Source of the DNA: Oscillospiraceae bacterium
GTDB lineage: Bacteria > Bacillota > Clostridia > Oscillospirales > JAAYXM01
DNA length: 64,000 nucleotides
Reading direction: 5' to 3'
NCBI GenBank assembly: GCA_017409405.1
Contig: JAFQSU010000007.1
Span: forward strand, 20,767-84,766
Part shown: one piece after another, positions 2,901 through 49,371 of the stretch
How positions within the stretch are numbered: position 1 is the first letter of the stretch
Layout: each line of letters starts with the position of its first letter
The notes under the pieces: model-generated
Database searches by the model: none
What the model was told of the DNA's origin: nothing
What the model saw: the letters and a program-made list of their open reading frames with translations, nothing else
Made by a program: the position numbers and the translations under genes

Positions 2901-3761
2901 TCATTCCTCCTGAGATTTATTTGCTTTGTTTTTATAGTATGCTGTGAGAAGCGGCTCCTGTATAGCCGAAAGAATGTTGCTTATAATCCAGTAAAGACCG
3001 AGACCTGCAGGAACCATGAACGCAATCCATACAGACATGAGCGGCATCATAAGATTCATCATGCCGTTTGTTGCGGCTGCCTGCTCTGTCATTGGCTTGC
3101 CCTGACCCTTTCTGATAAACAGATTGGATATCCAAGCCGTAACTCCTGAAAGAACGGGAATTACCCAAAGCGGAGTTATGTACTTGAAGTTCGGGATAGC
3201 GGCAAGGTCAATACCGAGGAAGGTAAAGTCAACGTTTGCGATATTCGGAGCGATTTCTGCAACAATTTCGCGGAAACTTGCGATGTACGATGCAACACTT
3301 ATCTGGAGCATATAGTTTGACCCTGAAGCAACACCCTGCGGAATGCCGGCAGCACCGGCTGTACGGAAAGCATCGGCAAGAGCGTTAATCTGGTCGGGTG
3401 TTATGTCGAAAATATAAGTGAGCGGCTGACGGAGAACGGAATAGAGACCGAACATAATCGGGAGCGTAATGAGCATCGGAAGACATCCGCCGAACATTGA
3501 AACGCCTTCCTTTTTATAAAGCTTCTGTACCTCTATTGAATAGCGTTCTTTGTCGTCCTTGTACTTCTTTTCAAGCTCGGCAAGCTTCGGCTGAATGCGC
3601 TGCATTTCCATCATGCCTTTTTTGCTCTTCATCTGGAAGGGCAGCATAACAAGCTTTGCGAGAACCGTGAAAAGAATAATTGCGAGACCGTAGTTGCCTA
3701 AAAGATAGTAACATTGCTTTAAAAGCCAACCGAACGGCTCAACTATCAATGCAGTATACAT
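2901..3761 (-). CDS. yidC: membrane protein insertase YidC/SpoIIIJ
   Basis: 286 aa, multi-TM, YidC/Oxa1-like sequence. Synteny rnpA-yidD-yidC-jag. Confidence 0.93.
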   Translation of the reverse strand: MYTALIVEPFGWLLKQCYYLLGNYGLAIILFTVLAKLVMLPFQMKSKKGMMEMQRIQPKLAELEKKYKDDKERYSIEVQKLYKKEGVSMFGGCLPMLITLPIMFGLYSVLRQPLTYIFDITPDQINALADAFRTAGAAGIPQGVASGSNYMLQISVASYIASFREIVAEIAPNIANVDFTFLGIDLAAIPNFKYITPLWVIPVLSGVTAWISNLFIRKGQGKPMTEQAAATNGMMNLMMPLMSVWIAFMVPAGLGLYWIISNILSAIQEPLLTAYYKNKANKSQEE

Positions 3762-10840: not shown

Positions 10841-10894
10841 ATTTCGATGAAGGCAAATTACTCAAAATATATTTCACAGTGAGGTAAATCACCT

Positions 10895-13408: not shown

Positions 13409-13530
13409 GGCTTCCCCTCAAGGGGAAGCTGTCACGAAGTGACTGATGAGGTGTAGATTGCGGAGTAATCGTTATTTTTCCACCTCATCCGCCTCGTTCC
13501 TCGGCACCTTCCCCTCAAGGGGAAGGCTGA
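13409..13530. repeat. about 120-bp composite palindromic element (family A), arms ending in CTTCCCCTCAAGGGGAAG hairpins
   Basis: Hairpins at 13411-13428 and 13507-13526. Inner GTCACgaaGTGAC hairpin at 13431-13443. GATGAGGTG (13445) pairs with CACCTCATC (13481). The 3' end runs into the rnhA SD. A related hairpin plus SD sits at 47657-47690. Confidence 0.8.
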
Positions 13531-14021: not shown

Positions 14022-15191
14022 ATGATATACGCGGACAATTCGGCTACAACAAAGGTAAAGCCGGAGGTTCTCGAAAAAATGCTCCCCTTCCTGCAGGGAC
14101 AGTACGGCAACCCGTCAAGTCTCTATGCTTTTGCATATGACTCAAAGCGTGCCGTCGAAAATGCCCGTGAAGAGGTGGCAAAGGTTATAGGTGCAAAGGC
14201 AAGAGAAATCTTCTTCACAAGCTGCGGAAGTGAATCCAACAACTGGGTTATAAAGGGCGTTGCATCAAAGTACAGGGACAAGGGCAATCATATTATTACC
14301 TCATGTATAGAGCATCCGGCAATAATTCAGACCTGCAAATATCTCGAAAAGCAGGGCTTTCGTGTGACATATCTTCCGGTAGATGAGTACGGTTCTGTCT
14401 CTCCCGAAGACGTGAGAAAAGCGATATGTGAAGACACCATACTTATTTCCGTGATGATGGCAAACAACGAGATAGGAACAATACAGCCAATCCGTGAAAT
14501 CGGAGAAATAGCAAAGGAAAAGGACATCCTTTTCCATACCGACGCCGTTCAGGCATTCGGTCATATTCCGATAAACGTCGATGAGCTTAATATAGATTTC
14601 CTCTCACTTTCGGGACATAAGATAGGCACGCCGAAAGGAATCGGTGCGCTGTACATCAGAACAGGCATCAAGATAGACAACCTTATCCACGGCGGCGGTC
14701 AGGAAAAAAACCGCCGTGCAGGAACGGAAAACGTACCGTATATAGTCGGTCTCGGAGAGGCGGCAAGGCTTGCAAACGAGAATATGGCAAAAAACATCGA
14801 AAAGCTCACGGCAATGCGCACGGCACTTGTTGAGCGGGTTTTAAAAATCCCGTACACAAAGCTCACGGGGCATCCGACAAACAGACTCCCCGGACTTTGC
14901 AGTATTATAATAGAAGGCATTGAGGGTGAGGCACTGCTTCTCAATATGTATAATGAGGGCATCTGCGCAAGCTCGGGCTCTGCCTGCTCGTCAGGCTCGC
15001 TTGACCCGTCGCACGTCCTGCTTTCAATAGGGCTTCCGCATCATATTGCACACGGCTCTCTCCGTCTCTCTCTCGGTGAGGACAATGAACCGGGCGATGA
15101 GATAAAGATTGCAGAAGCCGTAGAAAAGGTAGCGGCAAGGCTTCGTGCCATGTCCCCCGTCTGGGAAAACGGAAAGCCGATGTGGGAATGA
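14022..15191 (+). CDS. nifS: cysteine desulfurase NifS/IscS class
   Basis: 389 aa. PLP lysine context SGHKIGTPKG and active-site loop SSGSACSS. Confidence 0.93.
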   Translation: MIYADNSATTKVKPEVLEKMLPFLQGQYGNPSSLYAFAYDSKRAVENAREEVAKVIGAKAREIFFTSCGSESNNWVIKGVASKYRDKGNHIITSCIEHPAIIQTCKYLEKQGFRVTYLPVDEYGSVSPEDVRKAICEDTILISVMMANNEIGTIQPIREIGEIAKEKDILFHTDAVQAFGHIPINVDELNIDFLSLSGHKIGTPKGIGALYIRTGIKIDNLIHGGGQEKNRRAGTENVPYIVGLGEAARLANENMAKNIEKLTAMRTALVERVLKIPYTKLTGHPTNRLPGLCSIIIEGIEGEALLLNMYNEGICASSGSACSSGSLDPSHVLLSIGLPHHIAHGSLRLSLGEDNEPGDEIKIAEAVEKVAARLRAMSPVWENGKPMWE

Positions 15192-15344
15192 TATAAATGG
15201 AAAATTGATAATGGAAAATTGATAATTAAGGAGAAATCGCTTTGCGATTTCAAGTCAAATTGTTTTGATAAAATCAAAACACCATAACTTTCCATTTTCA
15301 ACTTTCAATTTTCCATTAAATAAACGACGAAGGAGTTTTTTATA
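15192..15344 (+). repeat. about 150-bp structured palindromic element (family B), copy 1, ending in the nifU SD
   Basis: Left arm 2 x AATGGAAAATTGAT (15196-15223). Right arm ...CTTTCAATTTTCCATT (to 15317). Inner hairpins at 15233-15251 and 15262-15280. Tail ACGACGAAGGAGTTTTTT then ATG. Second copy at 45867-46014. Confidence 0.85.
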
Positions 15345-15779
15345 ATGTACAGCGAAAAAGTTTTAGACCATTTTTCAAATCCGCGCAATGTGGGAGAGCT
15401 TGAGGGTGCAAACGCCGTCGGTCAGGTCGGAAACCCCAAGTGCGGAGATATTATGAAAATGTATATGAAGATAGAAAACGATGTTGTTGTAGACGTCACG
15501 TTTAAGACCTTCGGCTGCGGCGCAGCTGTTGCAACAAGCTCTATGGCAACGGAAATGGTAAAGGGCAAGACCGTAGAAGAAGCTCTGAAGCTTACAAACC
15601 GCGCAGTTGCAGAGGCTCTTGACGGTCTTCCGCCGGAAAAGCTTCACTGCTCCGTTCTTGCAGAAGAAGCAATTCAGTCGGCTATCGCAGATTATTACAA
15701 GCGTCAGGGTAAAGACCCGAAGGACTACGGCATAAACGTCTGTGACGGCAACTGTGAGCATTGCCACGCACATAAATAG
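15345..15779 (+). CDS. nifU: Fe-S cluster assembly scaffold NifU/IscU
   Basis: 144 aa. Conserved Cys ligands (NPKCGD, FGCGAA, LHCS). Confidence 0.94.
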   Translation: MYSEKVLDHFSNPRNVGELEGANAVGQVGNPKCGDIMKMYMKIENDVVVDVTFKTFGCGAAVATSSMATEMVKGKTVEEALKLTNRAVAEALDGLPPEKLHCSVLAEEAIQSAIADYYKRQGKDPKDYGINVCDGNCEHCHAHK

Positions 15780-15877: not shown

Positions 15878-15900
15878 CATTTCATAAGGAAGTGATTGAA

Positions 15901-16974
15901 ATGTTAGCATATATGACGGCAAACGAGGCAGCTGAAAAATGGAACATATCTCATAGAAGAGTTTTGACTCTTTGCAAAGAAAATCGCATTGCTGATATTG
16001 CTATGCTCGGAAACATGTGGATTATACCAATTGATGCAATAAAACCGGAAGACGCAAGGAGCCTTCGTTATAATAAAGGTGACGAGAAAGCTGTTAAACC
16101 TTTTTTGAAATGGGCTGGAGGAAAAGGGCAACTTATTAAAGAAATTGAAGCTTATTATCCTTTTAAAGACGGAAATATCACAAAATATGCAGAGCCTTTT
16201 GTTGGTGGCGGCGCAGTTTTATTTGACATTCTCAGCAAATATGAATTGAAAGAAGTTTATATAAGCGATATCAATGCTGAGCTTATGAATACTTATTTTA
16301 TTGTTCGCGACAATATAGATGCCTTGATTGAAAAACTACATGAAATGCAAAACAGTTTTATACCGTTAGAAGTAGAAAAGCGGAAAGCATATTATATGCA
16401 AAAGAGAATGCTGTTTAATAAGTTAAAAGAGAACACAAATGAAAAGAGTAATATTGAAAAAGCGGCAACAATGATATTTTTGAACAAAACCTGCTTTAAT
16501 GGTCTTTTTCGAGTAAATAAAAAAGGACTATTCAATGTTCCTATGGGATCTTATAAAAACCCCTTGATTTGCGATGAGAAAAACCTCAGAGCAGTATCGG
16601 AAAAATTACAAAAAATCACAATTGTTTGCGGAGATTACAGGGAGTCAGCAGACTTTATTGACAAAAACACATTTGTATATTTTGATCCACCATACAGACC
16701 GATTACGGAAACCGCAAGTTTTACTGCATATACAGAAAGTTTATTTAAGGATGAAGAACAGATTGAACTTGCGAAATTCGTTGATGAAATGCACAAAAAA
16801 GGAGCAAAAATAGTTGTTAGCAGTTCTGATCCGAAAAATACAAACAAAGAAGATGATTTCTTTGATAATATTTATGCTGCCCATAATATAAAACGCGTTG
16901 AAGCTACAAGAATGATTAACTGTAACAGTAAGGCAAGAGGAAAAATTACGGAATTGCTTATTTCTAATTTTTAA
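15901..16974 (+). CDS. Dam-family DNA (adenine-N6) methyltransferase with N-terminal HTH domain
   Basis: The track ORF starts at GTG 15892; ATG 15901 lies 8 nt after AAGGAAG, and ATG 15913 is also possible. Excisionase-like HTH MTANEAAEKWNISHRRVLTLCKENRI. Dam motifs KWAGGKGQL, EPFVGGGAV, FDPPY. Confidence 0.88.
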   Translation: MLAYMTANEAAEKWNISHRRVLTLCKENRIADIAMLGNMWIIPIDAIKPEDARSLRYNKGDEKAVKPFLKWAGGKGQLIKEIEAYYPFKDGNITKYAEPFVGGGAVLFDILSKYELKEVYISDINAELMNTYFIVRDNIDALIEKLHEMQNSFIPLEVEKRKAYYMQKRMLFNKLKENTNEKSNIEKAATMIFLNKTCFNGLFRVNKKGLFNVPMGSYKNPLICDEKNLRAVSEKLQKITIVCGDYRESADFIDKNTFVYFDPPYRPITETASFTAYTESLFKDEEQIELAKFVDEMHKKGAKIVVSSSDPKNTNKEDDFFDNIYAAHNIKRVEATRMINCNSKARGKITELLISNF

Positions 16975-16987
16975 GGAGAATTGAGTT

Positions 16988-17518
16988 ATGATAAAAAACG
17001 GCAAAGGTGGAGGAAATACCAAAACAGGTCTGGTTTTTGAAGGAAAGACAGATTTATCAACATTTCTTTCTATGCAAAAAGGGTATCAAGTAATCGAAGA
17101 TAAGGTATTTTACCAAGACGAACTGGTCGCAAGGATTTTTAAAAAGCACGACTTTTATAAGAAATTTCTTAAAGAGCTTGAGATAGATTGGACAAAGATT
17201 ATATCAAAGCAATTATTGCCGGACGACAGTATTTTTGTAATAATAAAGAACACATTATATATTATAGAGTGCAAGTTTCAGCAAGTGGCAGGCTCGGTTG
17301 ATGAAAAATTACAAACGTGTGATTTTAAGAAAAAACAGTATCAAAAGTTACTCTCAAAAGCAAATATAGATGTGGAATATATGTATTTGTTAAGTGATTG
17401 GTTTAGAGATGCTCGTTATAAAGACGTATTAGATTATATACATAGTGTCAGATGCCACTATTATTTTGAATATATTCCGCTGTATAAATTTGGATTGCCG
17501 GTTCCGGAAGAAGAATGA
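16988..17518 (+). CDS. putative type II restriction endonuclease, PD-(D/E)xK fold
   Basis: 176 aa, sandwiched between two methyltransferase genes. P78-D79...E94-C-K96 (LLPDDSIFVIIKNTLYIIECK). AAGGAG RBS. Family not recognised. Confidence 0.6.
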   Translation: MIKNGKGGGNTKTGLVFEGKTDLSTFLSMQKGYQVIEDKVFYQDELVARIFKKHDFYKKFLKELEIDWTKIISKQLLPDDSIFVIIKNTLYIIECKFQQVAGSVDEKLQTCDFKKKQYQKLLSKANIDVEYMYLLSDWFRDARYKDVLDYIHSVRCHYYFEYIPLYKFGLPVPEEE

Positions 17519-18264
17519 AAATGAAGAAAATAATTAGATGGGAGCCGGAAAACTTTGAATTGGAAATGACTACACATTGGTCTTTTCCAAAACGAGGAGA
17601 CTGGGCGACACACGATGCCAAATGGCGTGGAAATTGGTCACCTTATATACCGAGGAATATCATTTTGAGATATTCACATGAAGGAGATATGATTCTTGAC
17701 CAATTTGCCGGAGGCGGAACAACCCTTGTCGAAGCAAAGCTTTTAAACAGAGATATAATTGGTGTAGATATAAACGATGTTGCGATAGAACGATGTAAGG
17801 AAAAAACAACATTTGATTATCAGTCGGCGACCGGAAAGGTATACATAAAAAAGGGAGATGCAAGAAAGCTTGACTTTATTCCCAATGAAAGCATTGATCT
17901 TATATGCACACATCCGCCGTACGCAGATATTATCAAGTACAGCGAAGAAATCAATGGAGACTTATCTCAGTTAAAAGTTAAAGAGTTCGTTGAAGAAATG
18001 AAAAAAGTGGCAGCGGAAAGTTATCGCGTCTTAAAAAAGGACAAGTTTTGTGCCATCCTTATGGGAGACACACGGCAAAAAGGGCATATGATACCAATGT
18101 CGTTTGATGTAATGCGTGTTTTCCAAGAAGCCGGATTTAAACTGAAAGAAATTATTATTAAAGAGCAACACAATTGTAAGGCGACGGGATATTGGAAAAC
18201 TAACAGCGTAAAGTACAACTTTTTATTGATAGCGCATGAATATTTGTTCATCTTTAGAAAATAA
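17515..18264 (+). CDS. SAM-dependent DNA methyltransferase (motif I before motif IV; HPPY)
   Basis: 249 aa. 4-nt ATGA overlap with the nuclease gene. LDQFAGGGTTLVEAKLLNRDIIGVDIN (SAM site) at aa 61-87 and CTHPPYAD at aa 131-138. Confidence 0.8.
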   Translation: MKMKKIIRWEPENFELEMTTHWSFPKRGDWATHDAKWRGNWSPYIPRNIILRYSHEGDMILDQFAGGGTTLVEAKLLNRDIIGVDINDVAIERCKEKTTFDYQSATGKVYIKKGDARKLDFIPNESIDLICTHPPYADIIKYSEEINGDLSQLKVKEFVEEMKKVAAESYRVLKKDKFCAILMGDTRQKGHMIPMSFDVMRVFQEAGFKLKEIIIKEQHNCKATGYWKTNSVKYNFLLIAHEYLFIFRK

Positions 18265-20019: not shown

Positions 20020-20029
20020 TAAGAAGATA

Positions 20030-40917: not shown

Positions 40918-40918
40918 C

Positions 40919-41140
40919 AGACTGTCGAAAAAGGCGCGAGAACATAAGCGGAGAAAAAATAAAAGAGAGTTTCTTCGCAAAACAAACATTGACCAAAAGC
41001 AAATGCACGCATATTTAAAATCCCTTGAAGTGTCGAACTTCAAGGGATTTTCCGCTTATTTTGCCCGAAGGCATCCCTCGGAGTATACATATACACCTTC
41101 GGGTTCCATTCGGACAATCTCACACCTTTTTGGACAGTCT
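40919..41140 (+). mobile_element. MITE-like non-autonomous element, copy 2 (222 bp)
   Basis: Same TIRs and central hairpin (41022-41046) as copy 1. Confidence 0.75.
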
Positions 41141-41195
41141 CTGTTTTTCTGTGCATTTTAATGTAGCACAGCGGAAAAATCTACCCGTCACTCAC

Positions 41196-41296: not shown

Positions 41297-41325
41297 TTGA
41301 CAAACGGGTGTGAAAGTGGTATACT
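41297..41325 (+). promoter_or_regulatory. pyr operon promoter
   Basis: TTGACA (41297-41302), 17-nt spacer, TGgTATACT (extended -10; hexamer 41320-41325). Confidence 0.7.
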
Positions 41326-41424
41326 GATTAAAATAAAATCTTTAACGACGGTACCGTGATGCCGGCAAGATTTGTAATACTTTAAAAATGCAGGGCGAGT
41401 CCTTGTATGTTTTTGTGTGCGTAC

Positions 41425-41452
41425 ATCTTGCCTTCATGGGCAAGATTTTTTG
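41425..41452 (+). terminator. leader terminator (attenuator) 19 nt upstream of pyrC
   Basis: ATCTTGCC-ttcatg-GGCAAGAT followed by TTTTTT. An upstream GGCAAGAT (41364-41371) can pair with the 5' arm as an antiterminator. Confidence 0.7.
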
Positions 41453-42694: not shown

Positions 42695-45600
42695 ATGGCA
42701 AAACGTACAGACATCAAAAAAATTCTCATTATCGGCTCGGGTCCTATCGTAATCGGTCAGGCCGCAGAGTTTGACTATGCAGGCACACAGGCATGCCTTG
42801 CGCTCAAGGAAGAGGGCTACGAGGTTATCCTCTGCAACTCCAACCCTGCCACGATAATGACCGACACCACCATTGCGGACAAGGTTTACATGGAGCCGCT
42901 CACACTTGAATACATCGCAAAGATTCTCCGCCACGAGCGTCCCGATGCCATTGTTCCGGGTATCGGCGGTCAGACGGGACTCAACCTTGCAATGCAGCTT
43001 GAAAAGAAGGGCGTTCTCAAGGAATGCGGCGTTGAGCTTCTCGGCACATCAAGCGAGAGTATCGAGCGTGCCGAAGACCGTGAGCTTTTCAAGGAGCTTT
43101 GTGAGTCCATCGGTGAGCCTACCATCCCGTCGGAAATTACCTACTCGCTCGACGAGGCAAAGGCGGCGGCTGAAAGAATCGGTTACCCCGTTGTTCTCCG
43201 TCCTGCGTTTACGCTCGGCGGTACGGGCGGCGGCTTTGCATATAACGAGGAAGAGCTTGTTGAGGTTGGTCTCAATGCGTTCAAGCTCTCCCCTGTTCAT
43301 CAGGTTCTTATCGAAAAGAGCGTCCGCGGATATAAGGAGATTGAGTTTGAGGTTATGCGTGACTCTGCTGATCACGCAATCACCATCTGCGGTATGGAAA
43401 ATATAGACCCTGTCGGCGTTCATACGGGTGACTCTCTCGTTGTCGCTCCCATCATGACACTTTCCGATGCAGACAAGAAGATGCTCAACGACAGCGCAAT
43501 CAAGCTCATCCGTGAGCTTAAGATAGAGGGCGGCTGCAATGTTCAGTTCGCGCTCAACCCCGATTCAAGCGAGTACTACCTCATTGAGGTCAACCCCCGT
43601 GTCTCCCGTTCCTCCGCTCTCGCTTCAAAGGCAAGCGGATACCCCATTGCACGAGTAACCGCAAAAATCGCTGTCGGCATGGAGCTTTCCGACATTGCAA
43701 TAGCAAACACAACGGCTGAGTTTGAGCCGAGCCTCGACTATGTCATCGCAAAGCTTCCGAGATTCCCGTTTGATAAGTTCGCAACTGCTCCCAACACCCT
43801 CGGCACACAGATGAAGGCAACGGGTGAGGTTATGGGCATCGGCTCTAGCCTTGAAGAGTGCCTGCTCAAGTCTGTCCGTTCACTTGAAACGGGTGCTGAC
43901 CACTTCTGGCTGCCGAAGTTTGACGGAAAATCCCTTCCGGAGCTTCTTGACTATATCCGCGAATTTAAGGATGACAACATCTTTGCTATCGCCGAAGCCT
44001 TCCGCCTCGGCTGTGACACAGACACGCTGTTTGACATAACAAAAATAACACGCTACTTCCTTGAATCGGTTAAAAGAATTGTTGACGAGGAAACCGTTGT
44101 TGAAAAGAACTGCGGCGATGTTGAAACACTGAAAGCCGCAAAGAAGATGGGCTTTTCCGACAAGTTCATTGCCCGTCTGTGGAACATGAAGGAAATTGAC
44201 ATTTACAATCTTCGCAAAGAGAAAAACATCTTCCCGATATACCGTATGGTCGATACCTGCCACACGGGTGCATACATCCCGTATTTCTATTCCTCATACA
44301 CGGGCGAGAACGCATCACGCCTTACCGACAAAAAGAAAATCGTTGTTCTCGGTGCAGGTCCCATACGTATCGGTCAGGGCGTTGAGTTTGACTACTCAAC
44401 TGTCCATGCCGTAACCACAATCAAAAACTCGGGCTATGAGGCCATCATTATAAACAACAACCCCGAAACGGTTTCAACCGACTACACAACCGCCGATAAG
44501 CTCTACTTTGAACCGCTGACAACCGAAGATGTTATGAACATCATTGAGTTTGAAAAGCCCGAGGGCGTTATAGCCTCTCTCGGCGGACAAACTGCAATCA
44601 ACCTTGCCGAGCCGCTCATGTCACGCGGCGTAAAAATCATCGGTACGGACTGCGAAGCTATTGAACGTGCCGAAAACCGCGACAGCTTTGAAAAAATCCT
44701 CCGTGAGCTCGGTATTCCTCAGCCTAAGGGTCATGCCGTAACAAACATAGAAGACGGCATCCGCTCTGCCGCAGAGATAGGCTACCCTGTCCTCGTCCGC
44801 CCCAGCTTCGTTCTCGGCGGCCGTGCAATGCAGATTGTCTCAAACGAGGATCAGCTTCGCCACTACCTCAAAACGGCGGTTGAAATTGACGAGGACAAGC
44901 CCGTGCTTGTCGATAAATACATTCAGGGAAAAGAGGTTGAGGTTGACGCTATCTGCGACGGACGTGACGTGTTCGTTCCGGGCATTATGGAGCTTGTCGA
45001 GAGAACGGGCGTTCACTCCGGCGACTCAATAAGTGTATATCCGACCTTCTCGATTTCCGATAAGGTACGCGGAATCATTCTGCAGTACGCAAAAAAGCTC
45101 GGTCTCGGCATAGGAATTGTCGGTCTTTACAACATCCAGTTCATTGTCGATAAGGATGACAACGTATTTATCATTGAGGTAAATCCGCGCTCGTCAAGAA
45201 CCGTCCCGTTCCTTTCAAAGGCAACAGGCTACTCGCTTGCCGATATCGCAACAGAGGTTATCCTCGGAAAATCTCTCAAGGAGCAGGGCATATTTGATAT
45301 ATATCCGCCTGAGAAAAAGCGCTGGTATGTAAAGGTTCCGGTATTCTCCTTCAACAAAATCCGCGGTCTTGACGCTTACCTCTCCCCCGAGATGAAGTCA
45401 ACCGGTGAGGCTATCGGCTATGACGACAAGCTCAACCGCGCACTCTATAAGGCACTTCAGGCATCGGGAATGCATCTCCAGAACTACGGTACGGTGTTTG
45501 CAACGATTGCCGATAAGGACAAGGAAGAAGCACTTCCCCTCATCCGCCGCTTCTACAACCTCGGCTTCAATATTGAAGCGACTGAGGGCACTGCAAAATT

Positions 45601-45868
45601 CCTTAAGGAAAACGGCATCCGCACGCATATCCTCAAAAAACTTTCCGACGGCAGTGAGGAGATTGCCGATGCACTTCGTCAGGGACATATAGCATACGTC
45701 ATCAATACGCGCGACATTGCATCGAGCGGTACGGAGAGCGACGGTCATCAGATCCGCCGCCTTGCGACGGACAACAACGTCACAATCTTCACGGCACTTG
45801 ATACCGTCCGGGTACTCCTTGATGTTCTTGAAGAAACAACGCTCACAATTTCTACAATTGATGCTTAA
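42695..45868 (+). CDS. carB: carbamoyl-phosphate synthase large subunit
   Basis: 1057 aa. Duplicated ATP-grasp halves and a C-terminal MGS-like domain. Confidence 0.98.
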   Translation: MAKRTDIKKILIIGSGPIVIGQAAEFDYAGTQACLALKEEGYEVILCNSNPATIMTDTTIADKVYMEPLTLEYIAKILRHERPDAIVPGIGGQTGLNLAMQLEKKGVLKECGVELLGTSSESIERAEDRELFKELCESIGEPTIPSEITYSLDEAKAAAERIGYPVVLRPAFTLGGTGGGFAYNEEELVEVGLNAFKLSPVHQVLIEKSVRGYKEIEFEVMRDSADHAITICGMENIDPVGVHTGDSLVVAPIMTLSDADKKMLNDSAIKLIRELKIEGGCNVQFALNPDSSEYYLIEVNPRVSRSSALASKASGYPIARVTAKIAVGMELSDIAIANTTAEFEPSLDYVIAKLPRFPFDKFATAPNTLGTQMKATGEVMGIGSSLEECLLKSVRSLETGADHFWLPKFDGKSLPELLDYIREFKDDNIFAIAEAFRLGCDTDTLFDITKITRYFLESVKRIVDEETVVEKNCGDVETLKAAKKMGFSDKFIARLWNMKEIDIYNLRKEKNIFPIYRMVDTCHTGAYIPYFYSSYTGENASRLTDKKKIVVLGAGPIRIGQGVEFDYSTVHAVTTIKNSGYEAIIINNNPETVSTDYTTADKLYFEPLTTEDVMNIIEFEKPEGVIASLGGQTAINLAEPLMSRGVKIIGTDCEAIERAENRDSFEKILRELGIPQPKGHAVTNIEDGIRSAAEIGYPVLVRPSFVLGGRAMQIVSNEDQLRHYLKTAVEIDEDKPVLVDKYIQGKEVEVDAICDGRDVFVPGIMELVERTGVHSGDSISVYPTFSISDKVRGIILQYAKKLGLGIGIVGLYNIQFIVDKDDNVFIIEVNPRSSRTVPFLSKATGYSLADIATEVILGKSLKEQGIFDIYPPEKKRWYVKVPVFSFNKIRGLDAYLSPEMKSTGEAIGYDDKLNRALYKALQASGMHLQNYGTVFATIADKDKEEALPLIRRFYNLGFNIEATEGTAKFLKENGIRTHILKKLSDGSEEIADALRQGHIAYVINTRDIASSGTESDGHQIRRLATDNNVTIFTALDTVRVLLDVLEETTLTISTIDA

Positions 45869-46014
45869 TAAATGGAAAATTGATAATGGAAAATGGAAAA
45901 TTAAGGAGAAATCGCTCGGCGATTTCGATTAAAATGTTTTGTGGATACAAAACACCTGAACTTTCAATTTTCAACTTTCAATTTTCAATTAAAAAAACGA
46001 CGAAGGAGTTTTTT
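45867..46014 (+). repeat. family B structured palindromic element, copy 2, ending in the pyrK SD
   Basis: Aligns along its whole length with 15192-15344. Inner hairpins at 45908-45926 and 45936-45953. Same tail ACGACGAAGGAGTTTTTT then ATG. Confidence 0.85.
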
Positions 46015-46746
46015 ATGACTCAATCAGTTTTTACGATAAAATCAAATATCGCACTTACAGAAAGTGTTTACAAAATGACGCTTTCGGGCGACTGCTCCGA
46101 ATGTCGCCCCGGCGGATTTGTCAACATTCAGCTTACGGGAAGGTTTTTGCGCCGTCCCATCTCCGTCTGTGATGCATATGAAAACACACTTGTTATCATA
46201 TACAAGGTTGTTGGCAAGGGTACGGAGCAGATGTCACGCATGCAGCCCGGAGAGGCTCTTGATATCCTCACGGGGCTTGGCAACGGCTATGACCTTTCAA
46301 AGGGAGGAAGCCACCCTCTCCTTATCGGCGGCGGTGTTGGCGTGCCGCCTATGTACATGCTTGCAAAAGAGCTTATTGCCGGAGGTGCGGAAGTCTCCGT
46401 CATTCTCGGCTTCAATACGAAGGAAGAGATTTTTTACGAGAATGAGTTCCGTGCCCTCGGCGCGGACGTAACCGTCACAACCGTTGACGGCAGCTACGGA
46501 GTACAGGGTTTTGTCACCGATGCGGCAAAGGGTATGGAATACACACACGTTTTCACCTGCGGTCCCGAGCCGATGCTTCGCGCAGTGTACAAAAGCATAA
46601 AGGGCGACGGTCAGTTCAGCTTTGAAGAACGCATGGGCTGTGGATTCGGTGCATGCATGGGCTGCTCATGCAAGACCGTTACGGGGTATAAGCGCATATG
46701 CAAGGACGGACCCGTTCTCCGGAAGGAGGAGATTTTATGGGATTAA
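46015..46746 (+). CDS. pyrK: dihydroorotate dehydrogenase electron-transfer subunit
   Basis: Track ORF (45880) trimmed to MTQSVFTIK after GAAGGAG. FAD/NAD domain and a C-terminal 2Fe-2S Cys cluster (CGFGACMGCSC). Confidence 0.93.
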   Translation: MTQSVFTIKSNIALTESVYKMTLSGDCSECRPGGFVNIQLTGRFLRRPISVCDAYENTLVIIYKVVGKGTEQMSRMQPGEALDILTGLGNGYDLSKGGSHPLLIGGGVGVPPMYMLAKELIAGGAEVSVILGFNTKEEIFYENEFRALGADVTVTTVDGSYGVQGFVTDAAKGMEYTHVFTCGPEPMLRAVYKSIKGDGQFSFEERMGCGFGACMGCSCKTVTGYKRICKDGPVLRKEEILWD

Positions 46747-47642: not shown

Positions 47643-47656
47643 TTTGCGGATATGAA

Positions 47657-47690
47657 GGCTTCCCCTTGAGGGGAAGGCTCAAGAAAGGAG
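47657..47690 (+). repeat. family A hairpin + SD module upstream of pyrF
   Basis: GGCTTCCCCTTGAGGGGAAGGCTCAAGAAAGGAG; compare 13505-13538 upstream of rnhA. Confidence 0.75.
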
Positions 47691-48548: not shown

Positions 48549-49184
48549 ATGCAAAAGCTTATTGCTAAGGATTTACTTAAAATAAAGGCGGTTTTCTTCC
48601 GTCCGGACGAGCCGTTCACATGGGCAAGCGGTATCAAAAGCCCTGTTTACTGCGATAACCGCCTCACTCTTACCGCACCCGAGGTAAGAAACGATGTCGA
48701 AAACGGTCTTGTTTCACTTATCCGTGAACATTACCCCGAAGCAGAAGTGCTTATGGGCACATCAACTGCAGGTATTGCTCACGCCGCTATCTGCGGTCAC
48801 ATCATGGGTCTTCCGATGGGTTATGTCCGTTCCGGTGCAAAGGACCACGGCAGAAACAATCAGATAGAGGGTCGCCTTCTTTCCGGTCAGAAGGTCGTTG
48901 TTGTCGAAGACCTCATCTCCACGGGCGGAAGCTGTATCGAGGTTGTAAATGTTCTCCGTGAGGCAGGTGCAGAGGTTTTAGGCATCGTCAGCATCTTTAC
49001 CTACGGCATGCAGAAGGGTCTTGACCGTCTTGCGGCGGCAGAGGTCAAAAACGTCTCTCTCACAAACTTTGACGTTATTGCCGAAGTTGCGGCAGAAGAA
49101 AAGTATATTAAGCCCGAGGACGTTGCACGTCTTATAAAGTTCCGCAACAATCCGTCGGATGAGAGCTGGATAGCAAACGCATAA
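48549..49184 (+). CDS. pyrE: orotate phosphoribosyltransferase
   Basis: 211 aa. PRPP-binding motif VVVVEDLISTGGS. Confidence 0.96.
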   Translation: MQKLIAKDLLKIKAVFFRPDEPFTWASGIKSPVYCDNRLTLTAPEVRNDVENGLVSLIREHYPEAEVLMGTSTAGIAHAAICGHIMGLPMGYVRSGAKDHGRNNQIEGRLLSGQKVVVVEDLISTGGSCIEVVNVLREAGAEVLGIVSIFTYGMQKGLDRLAAAEVKNVSLTNFDVIAEVAAEEKYIKPEDVARLIKFRNNPSDESWIANA

Positions 49185-49194
49185 GCGTTTGCAG

Positions 49195-49371
49195 TTATAT
49201 AAATCCCAAAAGGGATTTGTGATATGCCCTTCGGGCGTGATATATTGCTTCGCAATGTGATATGCCTTCGGGCGTGAGGGGATTTATATAATATCACTTG
49301 ATGCGAAAGCATCAAATATCACAATTCACGAAGTGAATTATATCACATCGAGCGAAAGCGAGATATATCAC
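49195..49371. repeat. array of seven 7-mer-anchored mini-hairpins (3 x GTGATAT, then 4 x ATATCAC)
   Basis: GTGATAT at 49219, 49237 and 49257. ATATCAC at 49291, 49316, 49340 and 49365 (24-25-bp period). Each interval is its own small hairpin. Outer inverted repeat TATATAAATCCC (49195) / GGGGATTTATATA (49278). Confidence 0.85.

Follow-up and report, generated by a model that had tools for sequence, protein, structure and literature searches.

A stretch of 64,000 nucleotides (nt) from an Oscillospiraceae bacterium (contig JAFQSU010000007.1, positions 20,767 to 84,766), referred to below as the window, was analysed for a palindromic element that occupies two of its intergenic spacers, one between nifS and nifU and the other between carB and pyrK. 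An initial annotation, made from the sequence without database searches, had described the two spacers as copies of one structured element that supplies the ribosome-binding site of the downstream gene and is kept by selection on its structure. According to our analysis both spacers are probably copies of a new family of palindromic intergenic repeats, which resembles miniature inverted-repeat transposable elements (MITEs) and ERIC sequences, is shared by Oscillospiraceae and phages, and is selfish or neutral and variable between strains. Table 1 gives an overview of the features of the window and of positions in other loci referred to below.

Layout of the two copies

The names of the flanking genes (NifS, NifU, CarB and PyrK) were confirmed by NCBIfam, and the two copies align from end to end with 92% column identity. 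The proposed start of both elements right at the upstream stop codon holds for copy 1, which begins immediately 3' of the nifS TGA, whereas the start given for copy 2 (45867) falls on the middle base of the carB TAA. The tandem units described for the left arm are present as two exact 14-mers (15196-15223), and two inner hairpins were recovered in each copy by reading and by folding. As stated before, the loops differ between the copies (TTT versus TCG in hairpin 1, a larger versus a smaller loop in hairpin 2), and as the seventh pair of hairpin 2 copies 1 and 2 have A-T and T-A, respectively. The tails are identical as far as the T-run, after which copy 1 has an additional ATA ahead of the ATG.

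In a scan of the window the 19-mer tail AACGACGAAGGAGTTTTTT occurred exactly twice, with 0.06 occurrences expected from shuffles. Exact matches to the 13-mer arm sequence AATGGAAAATTGA lie inside the two elements only; with up to two mismatches 12 matches were found in the window versus 3.7 expected, and none of 100 shuffles reached 12. The outer 13 bp of the left and right arm are perfectly complementary in copy 1. Two C-to-A changes in the right arm of copy 2 are uncompensated, and its outer stem comprises 9 bp versus 13 bp in copy 1. The element is 125-155 nt long and non-coding, and its reading frame is not conserved, with an in-frame TAA in copy 1 and an open frame in copy 2. The idea that the 7-nt period serves as a source of stops in all three frames and both orientations is not true for the window copies.

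From these copies and the relatives described below, a full member consists of a left arm in which a 7-nt unit, mostly K-G-A-N-A-A-T, is arrayed, a core with one or two short hairpins, an A/T-rich linker between them and a short GG/CC helix closing the junction, and a right arm that is the inverted heptamer array. In the window subfamily a tail follows, made up of an A-run, a consensus Shine-Dalgarno (SD) sequence and a T-run, and extending up to the next ATG.

Both copies lie inside operons, as had been annotated, with no sense-strand terminator predicted in either spacer. The only terminator-like score in the spacers was obtained for hairpin 1 of copy 2, on the - strand. A promoter-like site with a leader terminator upstream of pyrC would place copy 2 within a polycistronic transcript. 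Given this site and the lack of a sense-strand terminator in the spacers, co-transcription of both elements with their operons can reasonably be inferred.

Table 1 Positions of the genes, of the two element copies with their parts, and of related sites. Positions are those of the window unless a locus is named
Feature	Position	Strand	Remarks
nifS	14022-15191	+	NCBIfam
Element copy 1	15192-15344	+	entire nifS-nifU spacer; 92% identical to copy 2; fold z = -5.4
Copy 1 left arm	15196-15226	+	AAT + GGAAAAT TGATAAT GGAAAAT TGATAAT; heptamer array
Copy 1 inner hairpin 1	15233-15251	+	GAAATCGC-TTT-GCGATTTC
Copy 1 inner hairpin 2	15261-15281	+	TGTTTTGAT-AAA-ATCAAAACA, then conserved CC
Copy 1 right arm	15287-15317	+	ACTTTCC ATTTTCA ACTTTCA ATTTTCC ATT
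Copy 1 tail	15318-15344	+	A-rich run, AAGGAG 15330-15335, T6, ATA; nifU ATG at 15345
nifU	15345-15779		NCBIfam
carB	42695-45868		NCBIfam
Element copy 2	45867-46014	+	entire carB-pyrK spacer; fold z = -4.2
Copy 2 left arm	45871-45901	+	AAT + GGAAAAT TGATAAT GGAAAAT GGAAAAT
Copy 2 inner hairpin 1	45908-45926	+	GAAATCGC-TCG-GCGATTTC
Copy 2 inner hairpin 2	45935-45954	+	TGTTTTGT-GGAT-ACAAAACA
Copy 2 right arm	45960-45990	+	ACTTTCA ATTTTCA ACTTTCA ATTTTCA ATT; two C-to-A changes vs copy 1
Copy 2 tail	45991-46014	+	A7, CGACG, AAGGAG 46003-46008, T6; pyrK ATG at 46015
pyrK	46015-46746		NCBIfam
Native gyrB-gyrA spacer, empty site	10841-10894	+	filled in strain L438
pyr operon promoter-like site and leader terminator	41297-41446	+	TTGACA-17-TATACT; upstream of pyrC
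Sigma-70-like arm matches, L357	1391-1419, 2050-2078	+	
Sigma-70-like arm matches, L357	1500-1472, 2160-2132	-	
Sigma-70-like arm match, L355	1486-1514		
Sigma-70-like arm match, window	15198-15226		weak

Filled and empty alleles at nifS-nifU and gyrB-gyrA

Contigs encoding identical proteins were taken from ENA metagenome assemblies, in which the contigs labelled XIEF21 presumably represent ruminant gut samples; fetched loci are designated by L numbers. Among the contigs with identical NifU, the window, L002, L004 and L006 have a filled nifS-nifU spacer, and L003, L005 and L007 an empty one. In the empty allele the spacer is 62 nt long, is unrelated in sequence and has an SD of its own (GTAAGGAGATATATATATG), and the nifS flanks of filled and empty strains are 98.9-99.6% identical. 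The last sense codon of nifS is GAA in the filled strains, GCG in the empty strains and GCA in the relative L104, the latter two both encoding Ala. Since the NifS of L104 ends with MWA*, as in the empty allele, the filled allele is the derived one. Furthermore, the filled or empty state is discordant with the nifS phylogeny, the empty L005 being nearer to the window than the filled L004. Strain polymorphisms within copy 1 are located outside the stems.

Directly downstream of nifU the window carries a restriction-modification island (15892-18264) encoding a Dam-family methyltransferase, a PDDEXK protein and an N6/N4 methyltransferase. Strains L003 and L004 lack the island, whose presence shows no dependence on that of the element.

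A third locus of this species was found at gyrB-gyrA, where L438 has a filled spacer and the window, L435 and L436 have an empty one. In L438 the native 54-nt spacer is replaced by 113 nt comprising a heptamer-armed hairpin, the tail ATAAAAAACCGGAGGTTTTTTAAAACT and the ATG. Six of the 16 differences between the gyrB genes of L438 and the window fall within the last 22 nt, and this clustering points to an imported recombination tract that reaches into gyrB. Homologous recombination with a diverged relative would make whole spacers look replaced without any special insertion chemistry, and an exotic insertion mechanism behind the replacement was rejected on the same grounds. At 60 nt into gyrA the L438 scaffold contains an N-run followed by a repeated gyrA start (~1786-1885). 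The sample, ERZ28653748, probably holds both spacer alleles, the filled one being read from this N-gapped scaffold.

Family members in related species and in phages

In L107, whose PyrK is 79% identical, homologous elements are present in both the carB-pyrK and the pyrD-pyrF spacer. They have the layout and the hairpin 2 (GTTTTG..CAAAACACC) of the window copies, but their arms are built from GCAGAAT/GCAAAAT instead of GGAAAAT/TGATAAT. The phage contig L086 carries a copy between its scaffold and major-capsid genes, with arms of the window type and the identical tail AAACGACGAAGGAGTT, while 79 relatives of its capsid gene lack the element and have short native leaders instead. The right end of copy 1 is nearer to this phage copy than to copy 2 (ATTTTCCATT...TAAAC).

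In phage L020 two copies flank the scaffold gene, with their cores oppositely oriented within one co-directional operon. Members with other heptamers (TGACAAT, GGAGAAT, TAAGAAT, TGACAGT) are found in its relatives L356, L357, L358, L360-362, L366, L367 and L369; most relatives are empty, the scaffold stop abutting the capsid start. Within this close family the elements lie between co-directional genes, usually extending from no more than about 10 nt after the upstream stop to the next SD or start. Altogether, this species has dispersed copies at three loci, L107 has two and each phage at least two, with filled and empty alleles known at the nifS-nifU, gyrB-gyrA and phage capsid-gene junctions.

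In IMG/VR the right-arm-plus-tail pattern had L086 as its sole match, and the metagenome collection contained no match to it; the junction and hairpin-2 patterns returned only phage coding sequences or unrelated matches from IMG/VR. BLAST against cultured phages and plasmids yielded arm-only matches in human-faecal 'Bacteriophage sp.' records and one chance match in a Gloeothece plasmid, and the single match of the pattern AAGGAGAAATCGCNNNGCGATTTC over genome-collection contigs, in a metagenome-assembled genome of Caulobacteraceae, was likewise due to chance. P0001, a candidate for an N-terminally extended PyrK, turned out to be an assembly chimera. A literature search by sequence strings and keywords retrieved nothing relevant.

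The carB-pyrK spacer is a hot spot (L104, L105/L106, L107, L108, L109/L110, L111-L113, L114). In species whose PyrK shares 77-81% identity with that of the window, at least five distinct palindromic inserts with lengths of 95-200 nt were seen in it, at least four unrelated elements being among them, or else the spacer has no insert and measures 13 or 46 nt.

Origin of the Shine-Dalgarno tail

The claim that the element itself supplies the SD of the downstream gene is borne out at nifU, gyrA and L086, where empty relatives have a different native SD, and stays ambiguous at pyrK. The tail AAACGACGAAGGAGTT (CGACGAAGGAG) recurs at three non-orthologous loci, namely nifU, pyrK and the L086 capsid gene, and the CCGGAGG tail AAAAAACCGGAGGTTTTTT at two, pyrK of L107 and gyrA of L438; at the latter the native SD region is replaced by the element together with its tail. 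The pyrK tail resembles the leader of L105, which has no palindrome, differing by a few substitutions and one base of length, and the L105 leader could be either a remnant or the source. L109 and L110 have the CCGGAGG leader in common, behind an unrelated element. At two sites the SD is native: the tail of the second L107 copy (L107B) equals the pyrF leader found in the window, and phage L357 has retained its native junction TGAAAGGATGATTTTATTATG. The explanation of the pyrK tail as a simple native leader is weakened by the recurrence of the tails at non-orthologous loci, although L107B and L357 may have such a leader. Taken together, the evidence points both ways, but for the most part it suggests that in the window subfamily the SD belongs to the element.

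Folding, covariation and strand signature

Copy 1 folds with -40.8 kcal/mol (z = -5.4) and copy 2 with -36.7 kcal/mol (z = -4.2), in both cases as a long outer stem around two hairpins, and none of 200 shuffles of either copy folded as well. In an alignment of seven family members (A5) hairpin 2 is 94.8% paired, and five of its nine pairs have changed on both sides, which none of 500 shuffles matched. The arms are 89.7% paired with changes on both sides in 6 of 17 pairs, a result only marginal against shuffles; their units have been replaced wholesale between members with complementarity retained. A second alignment (A8, made with MAFFT) had hairpin 2 out of register in some rows and was excluded from the pair counts.

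The compensatory changes had been taken to argue for selection on the structure itself, at the level of either RNA or DNA. The covariation is real, but it bears no mark of the RNA strand. A strand-specific signature in the form of G-U pairs, preferred folding of the sense strand and a fixed orientation was not seen: among the 43 and 38 pairs of the window copies there is no G-U pair, and in four of the five members tested the antisense strand folds at least as well as the sense strand. Helix-supporting covariation as found in hairpin 2 would equally result from a DNA palindrome, because the arms of such a palindrome can stay complementary by templated repair. The covariation does not demonstrate selection at the RNA level. 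The copy in L438 folds only weakly (z = -1.6). Across members the hairpin loops are mostly of 3 nt and closed by C-G, a configuration typical of DNA palindromes; hairpin 2 of both window copies is the exception. Rfam 15 gave no family match at the elements at gathering thresholds, and the best matches in a permissive search (E >= 0.39) were far under threshold.

The sequence GCGAAGC, an unusually stable DNA mini-hairpin, recurs in the inner hairpins of several repeat families (L107 hairpin 2; L118, ~1295-1310; L357, ~2170-2185; L004, ~1500).

Even at the cost of mismatches, both arms of L357 and L438 retain the unit pattern. Perfect pairing thus seems to count for less than processes at the level of the array (slippage, conversion, templated repair) or recognition of the unit itself.

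A selected cis-acting RNA module is a real, if minor, possibility. Its three-way junction would act as a processing site for RNase III or RNase Y, or as a stabiliser that blocks 3'-exonucleases; it could also insulate translation by presenting the SD in a hairpin of the A-run and U-run, and could have spread by tuning the downstream gene. The strong fold of both window copies, the covariation in hairpin 2 and the arms, the consensus SD in the tail and the location of the copy 1 polymorphisms outside the stems are in agreement with such a role, as are the stop-to-start placement between co-directional genes in the close family and the position directly upstream of the major-capsid gene in two groups of phages. 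Nevertheless, sister strains dispense with the element, the core is flipped within one phage operon, arm changes in copy 2 are left uncompensated and the L438 copy hardly folds. The lack of G-U pairs, the equal folding of the antisense strand, the mostly 3-nt, C-G-closed loops of DNA-palindrome type and the lack of an Rfam match also speak against it.

A wider class of heptamer-armed elements

Across 2.7 Mb of fetched sequence the arm unit is mostly K-G-A-N-A-A-T, and the arm pattern alone matched 92 IMG/VR contigs and at least 120 metagenome contigs; this wider class is in part defined by the search pattern, in which the unit was prescribed. Its 27 viral and 22 metagenomic elements are all located between genes, and no open reading frame (ORF) runs across any of them. 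In phages they are tightly placed from the stop codon to the next start. About half of those in metagenomes lie between convergent genes, and the flanking GC content ranges from 38 to 69%.

In the phage-like contig L061 (IMG/VR 3300007142_000090) heptamer arms of TGAAAGT/TGAAAAT surround a conserved A/T-rich loop between every gene (826-960, 2068-2166, 2655-2760, 3307-3467), and TATATTTG within this loop conforms to the Bacteroidetes -7 promoter motif TAnnTTTG. The metagenome contigs L135, L193, L211, L212, L230 and L233 combine AT-rich arms of the AATTGAAAAT type with G+C-rich cores and flanks of 62-69% GC, mostly between convergent genes. An extreme member of the class in L188 (4463-4630) has about 13 tandem AATTGAA units facing a degenerate right arm (TTTGCGA/TTTTCAA).

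We regard it as unlikely, but worth stating, that the element is a portable intercistronic junction, traded by tailed phages and their Oscillospiraceae hosts and kept for setting both processing and translation of the next gene, within a far wider and previously undescribed class of K-G-A-N-A-A-T-armed hairpins. Its targets would include the major capsid protein, GyrA, NifU and PyrK, and the class may be recognised by a conserved factor. If true, the junction would be composed of heptamer-array arms, triloop hairpins and an SD between an A-run and a T-run. Assemblies from the human gut and a large number of further metagenome contigs contain members of the class, with a flanking GC content of 38-69%.

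It is quite improbable that the inverted 7-nt units are primarily arrays of binding sites for a host or phage protein, be it a transposase or recombinase with subterminal repeats as its substrate, a nucleoid protein or a regulatory protein, with the palindrome being secondary. Although K-G-A-N-A-A-T is kept on both arms despite mismatches in L357 and L438 and recurs in genomes over the whole range of flanking GC, the unit changes among close relatives (GGAAAAT, TGACAAT, GCAGAAT, TAAGAAT), no candidate protein adjoins the elements in the fetched loci, and the pattern by which a large part of the wider class was retrieved already prescribes the unit.

Hardly any probability is assigned to a promoter and terminator cassette acting at the DNA level, in which inward sigma-70-like promoters reside in the arms while the hairpins and the T-rich linker act as terminators, so that transcription would be started anew or punctuated at the element. 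Arrays of T-G-A-N-A-A-T read TTGANA-17-GANAAT because 6 + 17 = 3 x 7 + 2, and the arms of L357 and L355 indeed contain sites with 9-10 of 12 matching positions on both strands (5-6 versus 0.6-1.1 in shuffles). Hairpin 1 and the linker scored as terminator-like in the same scans, and the location of about half of the metagenomic members between convergent genes would fit as well. However, the window matches are weak (TGGAAA-17-GATAAT, 9/12) and come with no sense-strand terminator, a promoter-like look is common in AT-rich repeats, the L107 arms (GCAGAAT) have no TTG, and the pyr, nif and gyr operons would suffer from strong internal termination.

The mere two window copies with a common leader up to the ATG might suggest nothing more than a single event in this genome, a duplication or a gene conversion that involved two of its spacers. 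This is practically discounted by the homologues in other species, at another locus of this species and in phages, and by the greater similarity of the right end of copy 1 to phage L086 than to copy 2.

Nature of the element

We therefore return to the reading proposed at the outset, a family of selfish or neutral palindromic repeats dispersed over tailed phages and the chromosomes of rumen and gut Oscillospiraceae. The element would behave as a DNA palindrome that is tolerated within essential operons because it brings no sense-strand terminator and carries a strong SD of its own where the native initiation region is displaced. A filled chromosomal spacer is a dispensable allele, which would be exchanged among strains via homologous recombination. 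Complementarity of the arms would be kept by DNA-level processes, i.e. slippage and templated repair, and any effect on the RNA, such as a 3'-end-protecting or processing hairpin, would be secondary. In agreement with a MITE the element is small and non-coding with terminal inverted repeats, the arms being 30-nt inverted heptamer arrays.

Several observations weigh against this reading. No target-site duplication was found. The single clean pair of an empty and a filled site (L105 and L107) shows AATT changed to AAT...ATT, which is compatible with an AATT target and indistinguishable from the element's own ends; at nifU, gyrA and L086 the entire spacer differs and no insertion junction is readable. 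Neither was a parent insertion sequence (IS) or transposase found; where arms of the fetched loci are paired at a distance of 350-4000 nt, several ordinary ORFs lie between them. Two copies were counted in the 64 kb; about 8 kb adjoining the window on its left yielded none, nor did 58 kb from three related species. A purely neutral model leaves the conservation of the heptamer across very different genomes unexplained, and the adjacency to the major-capsid gene, directly upstream of it in two phage groups, hints at a use. Finally, turnover of sequence under a kept structure in hairpin 2 and the arms would also fit selection on structure.

Comparison with known systems

The ERIC/IRU sequences of enterobacteria are imperfect palindromes of ~127 bp in transcribed intergenic regions. 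The present element resembles them in size, as a non-coding imperfect palindrome, in its location within operons with probable co-transcription, in its variability between strains and in having no known transposase, and effects on mRNA stability have been proposed for ERIC. There is no sequence relation, the phylum is another one, and the heptamer-array arms, the SD tail within the copied unit and the phage copies set the family described here apart.

Similarities to the Correia elements of Neisseria (CREE), which are MITEs, include a length of 100-155 bp, inverted-repeat ends, location next to genes, probable co-transcription and strain variability. The ends of Correia elements can read as promoters, and RNase III acts on their hairpin. 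They are further characterised by a TA target duplication, by terminal inverted repeats of 26 bp and by a site for IHF, none of which was seen here; to our knowledge no SD tail has been described for them.

Like REP/REPIN sequences, which are mobilised by RAYT transposases and for which a role as mRNA 3'-end stabiliser has been proposed, the element is a short extragenic palindrome with a doublet of hairpins that occurs between genes and in operons. It differs from them by the absence of the GTAG/CGTC head, its ends reading AAT plus K-G-A-N-A-A-T units, by the lack of a RAYT gene and by an apparently low copy number, as judged from 64 kb plus ~8 kb of the genome. We do not file it as a classical MITE or as a REPIN, as neither a parent IS nor a target duplication was found in the loci read and the REP head is absent.

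With the RNase III hairpins of phage T7 (R0.3, R1.1) the element shares an intercistronic location in polycistronic mRNA just upstream of the next SD. The T7 hairpins are fixed, non-repeated and have a defined internal loop, whereas the present element is a dispersed repeat that is missing in close relatives. Cyanobacteria reportedly contain STRR heptanucleotide arrays and nested small dispersed repeats, which are similar in being intergenic 7-nt arrays with nested hairpin-forming repeats and no known means of mobilisation but differ in unit sequence and phylum; we know of no inverted-array architecture or SD tail among them.

Other repeats and RNAs in the window and its relatives

Other small palindromic repeats abound in these genomes. 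A separate MITE-like repeat of ~226 bp is present in the window at 20062-20287 and 40918-41141. Its copies are 89-97% identical and have 17-bp terminal inverted repeats (CAGACTGTCGAAAAAGG ... CCTTTTTGGACAGTCTC), and a hairpin repeat of 33 nt lies on either side of the first copy (20029-20061 and 20316-20348). Another palindromic family, GAGGGGAAGG...GATGAGGTG (GCCTTCCCCTTGAGGGGAAGG ... CTGATGAGGTG ... CACCTCATCC ...), occurs in operon spacers of relatives (L004, 1470-1690; L104, 9852-10000; L105, 2897-3054; L111, 9801-10000) and is inserted at the nifU terminator hairpin in L004. Of this GCCTTCCCCTTGAGGGGAAGG-type family the window has only short GGGGAAGG hairpins (~47655-47685 and 13410-13429). 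An Rfam Gut-1 RNA (RF01706) was detected at 49192-49268 (+) with 67.4 bits (E = 2.7e-11), just after the ORF at 48549-49184.

Significance of the repeat family

For the annotation of genomes, the element is an example that identical ribosome-binding site contexts in front of unrelated genes can be borne by a repeat. Replaced spacers can also arise by recombination with a diverged allele and not by the insertion chemistry of an element, which calls for caution when junctions are read. Three housekeeping operons (gyrB-gyrA, nifS-nifU, carB-pyrK) provide natural alleles with and without the repeat, by which its effects on operon mRNA and on translation of the next gene can be tested directly. If, as is probable, the elements constitute a repeat family of their own, a previously undescribed family from a little-studied gut and rumen clade, which is shared with phages, would be added to the palindromic intergenic repeats of bacteria.

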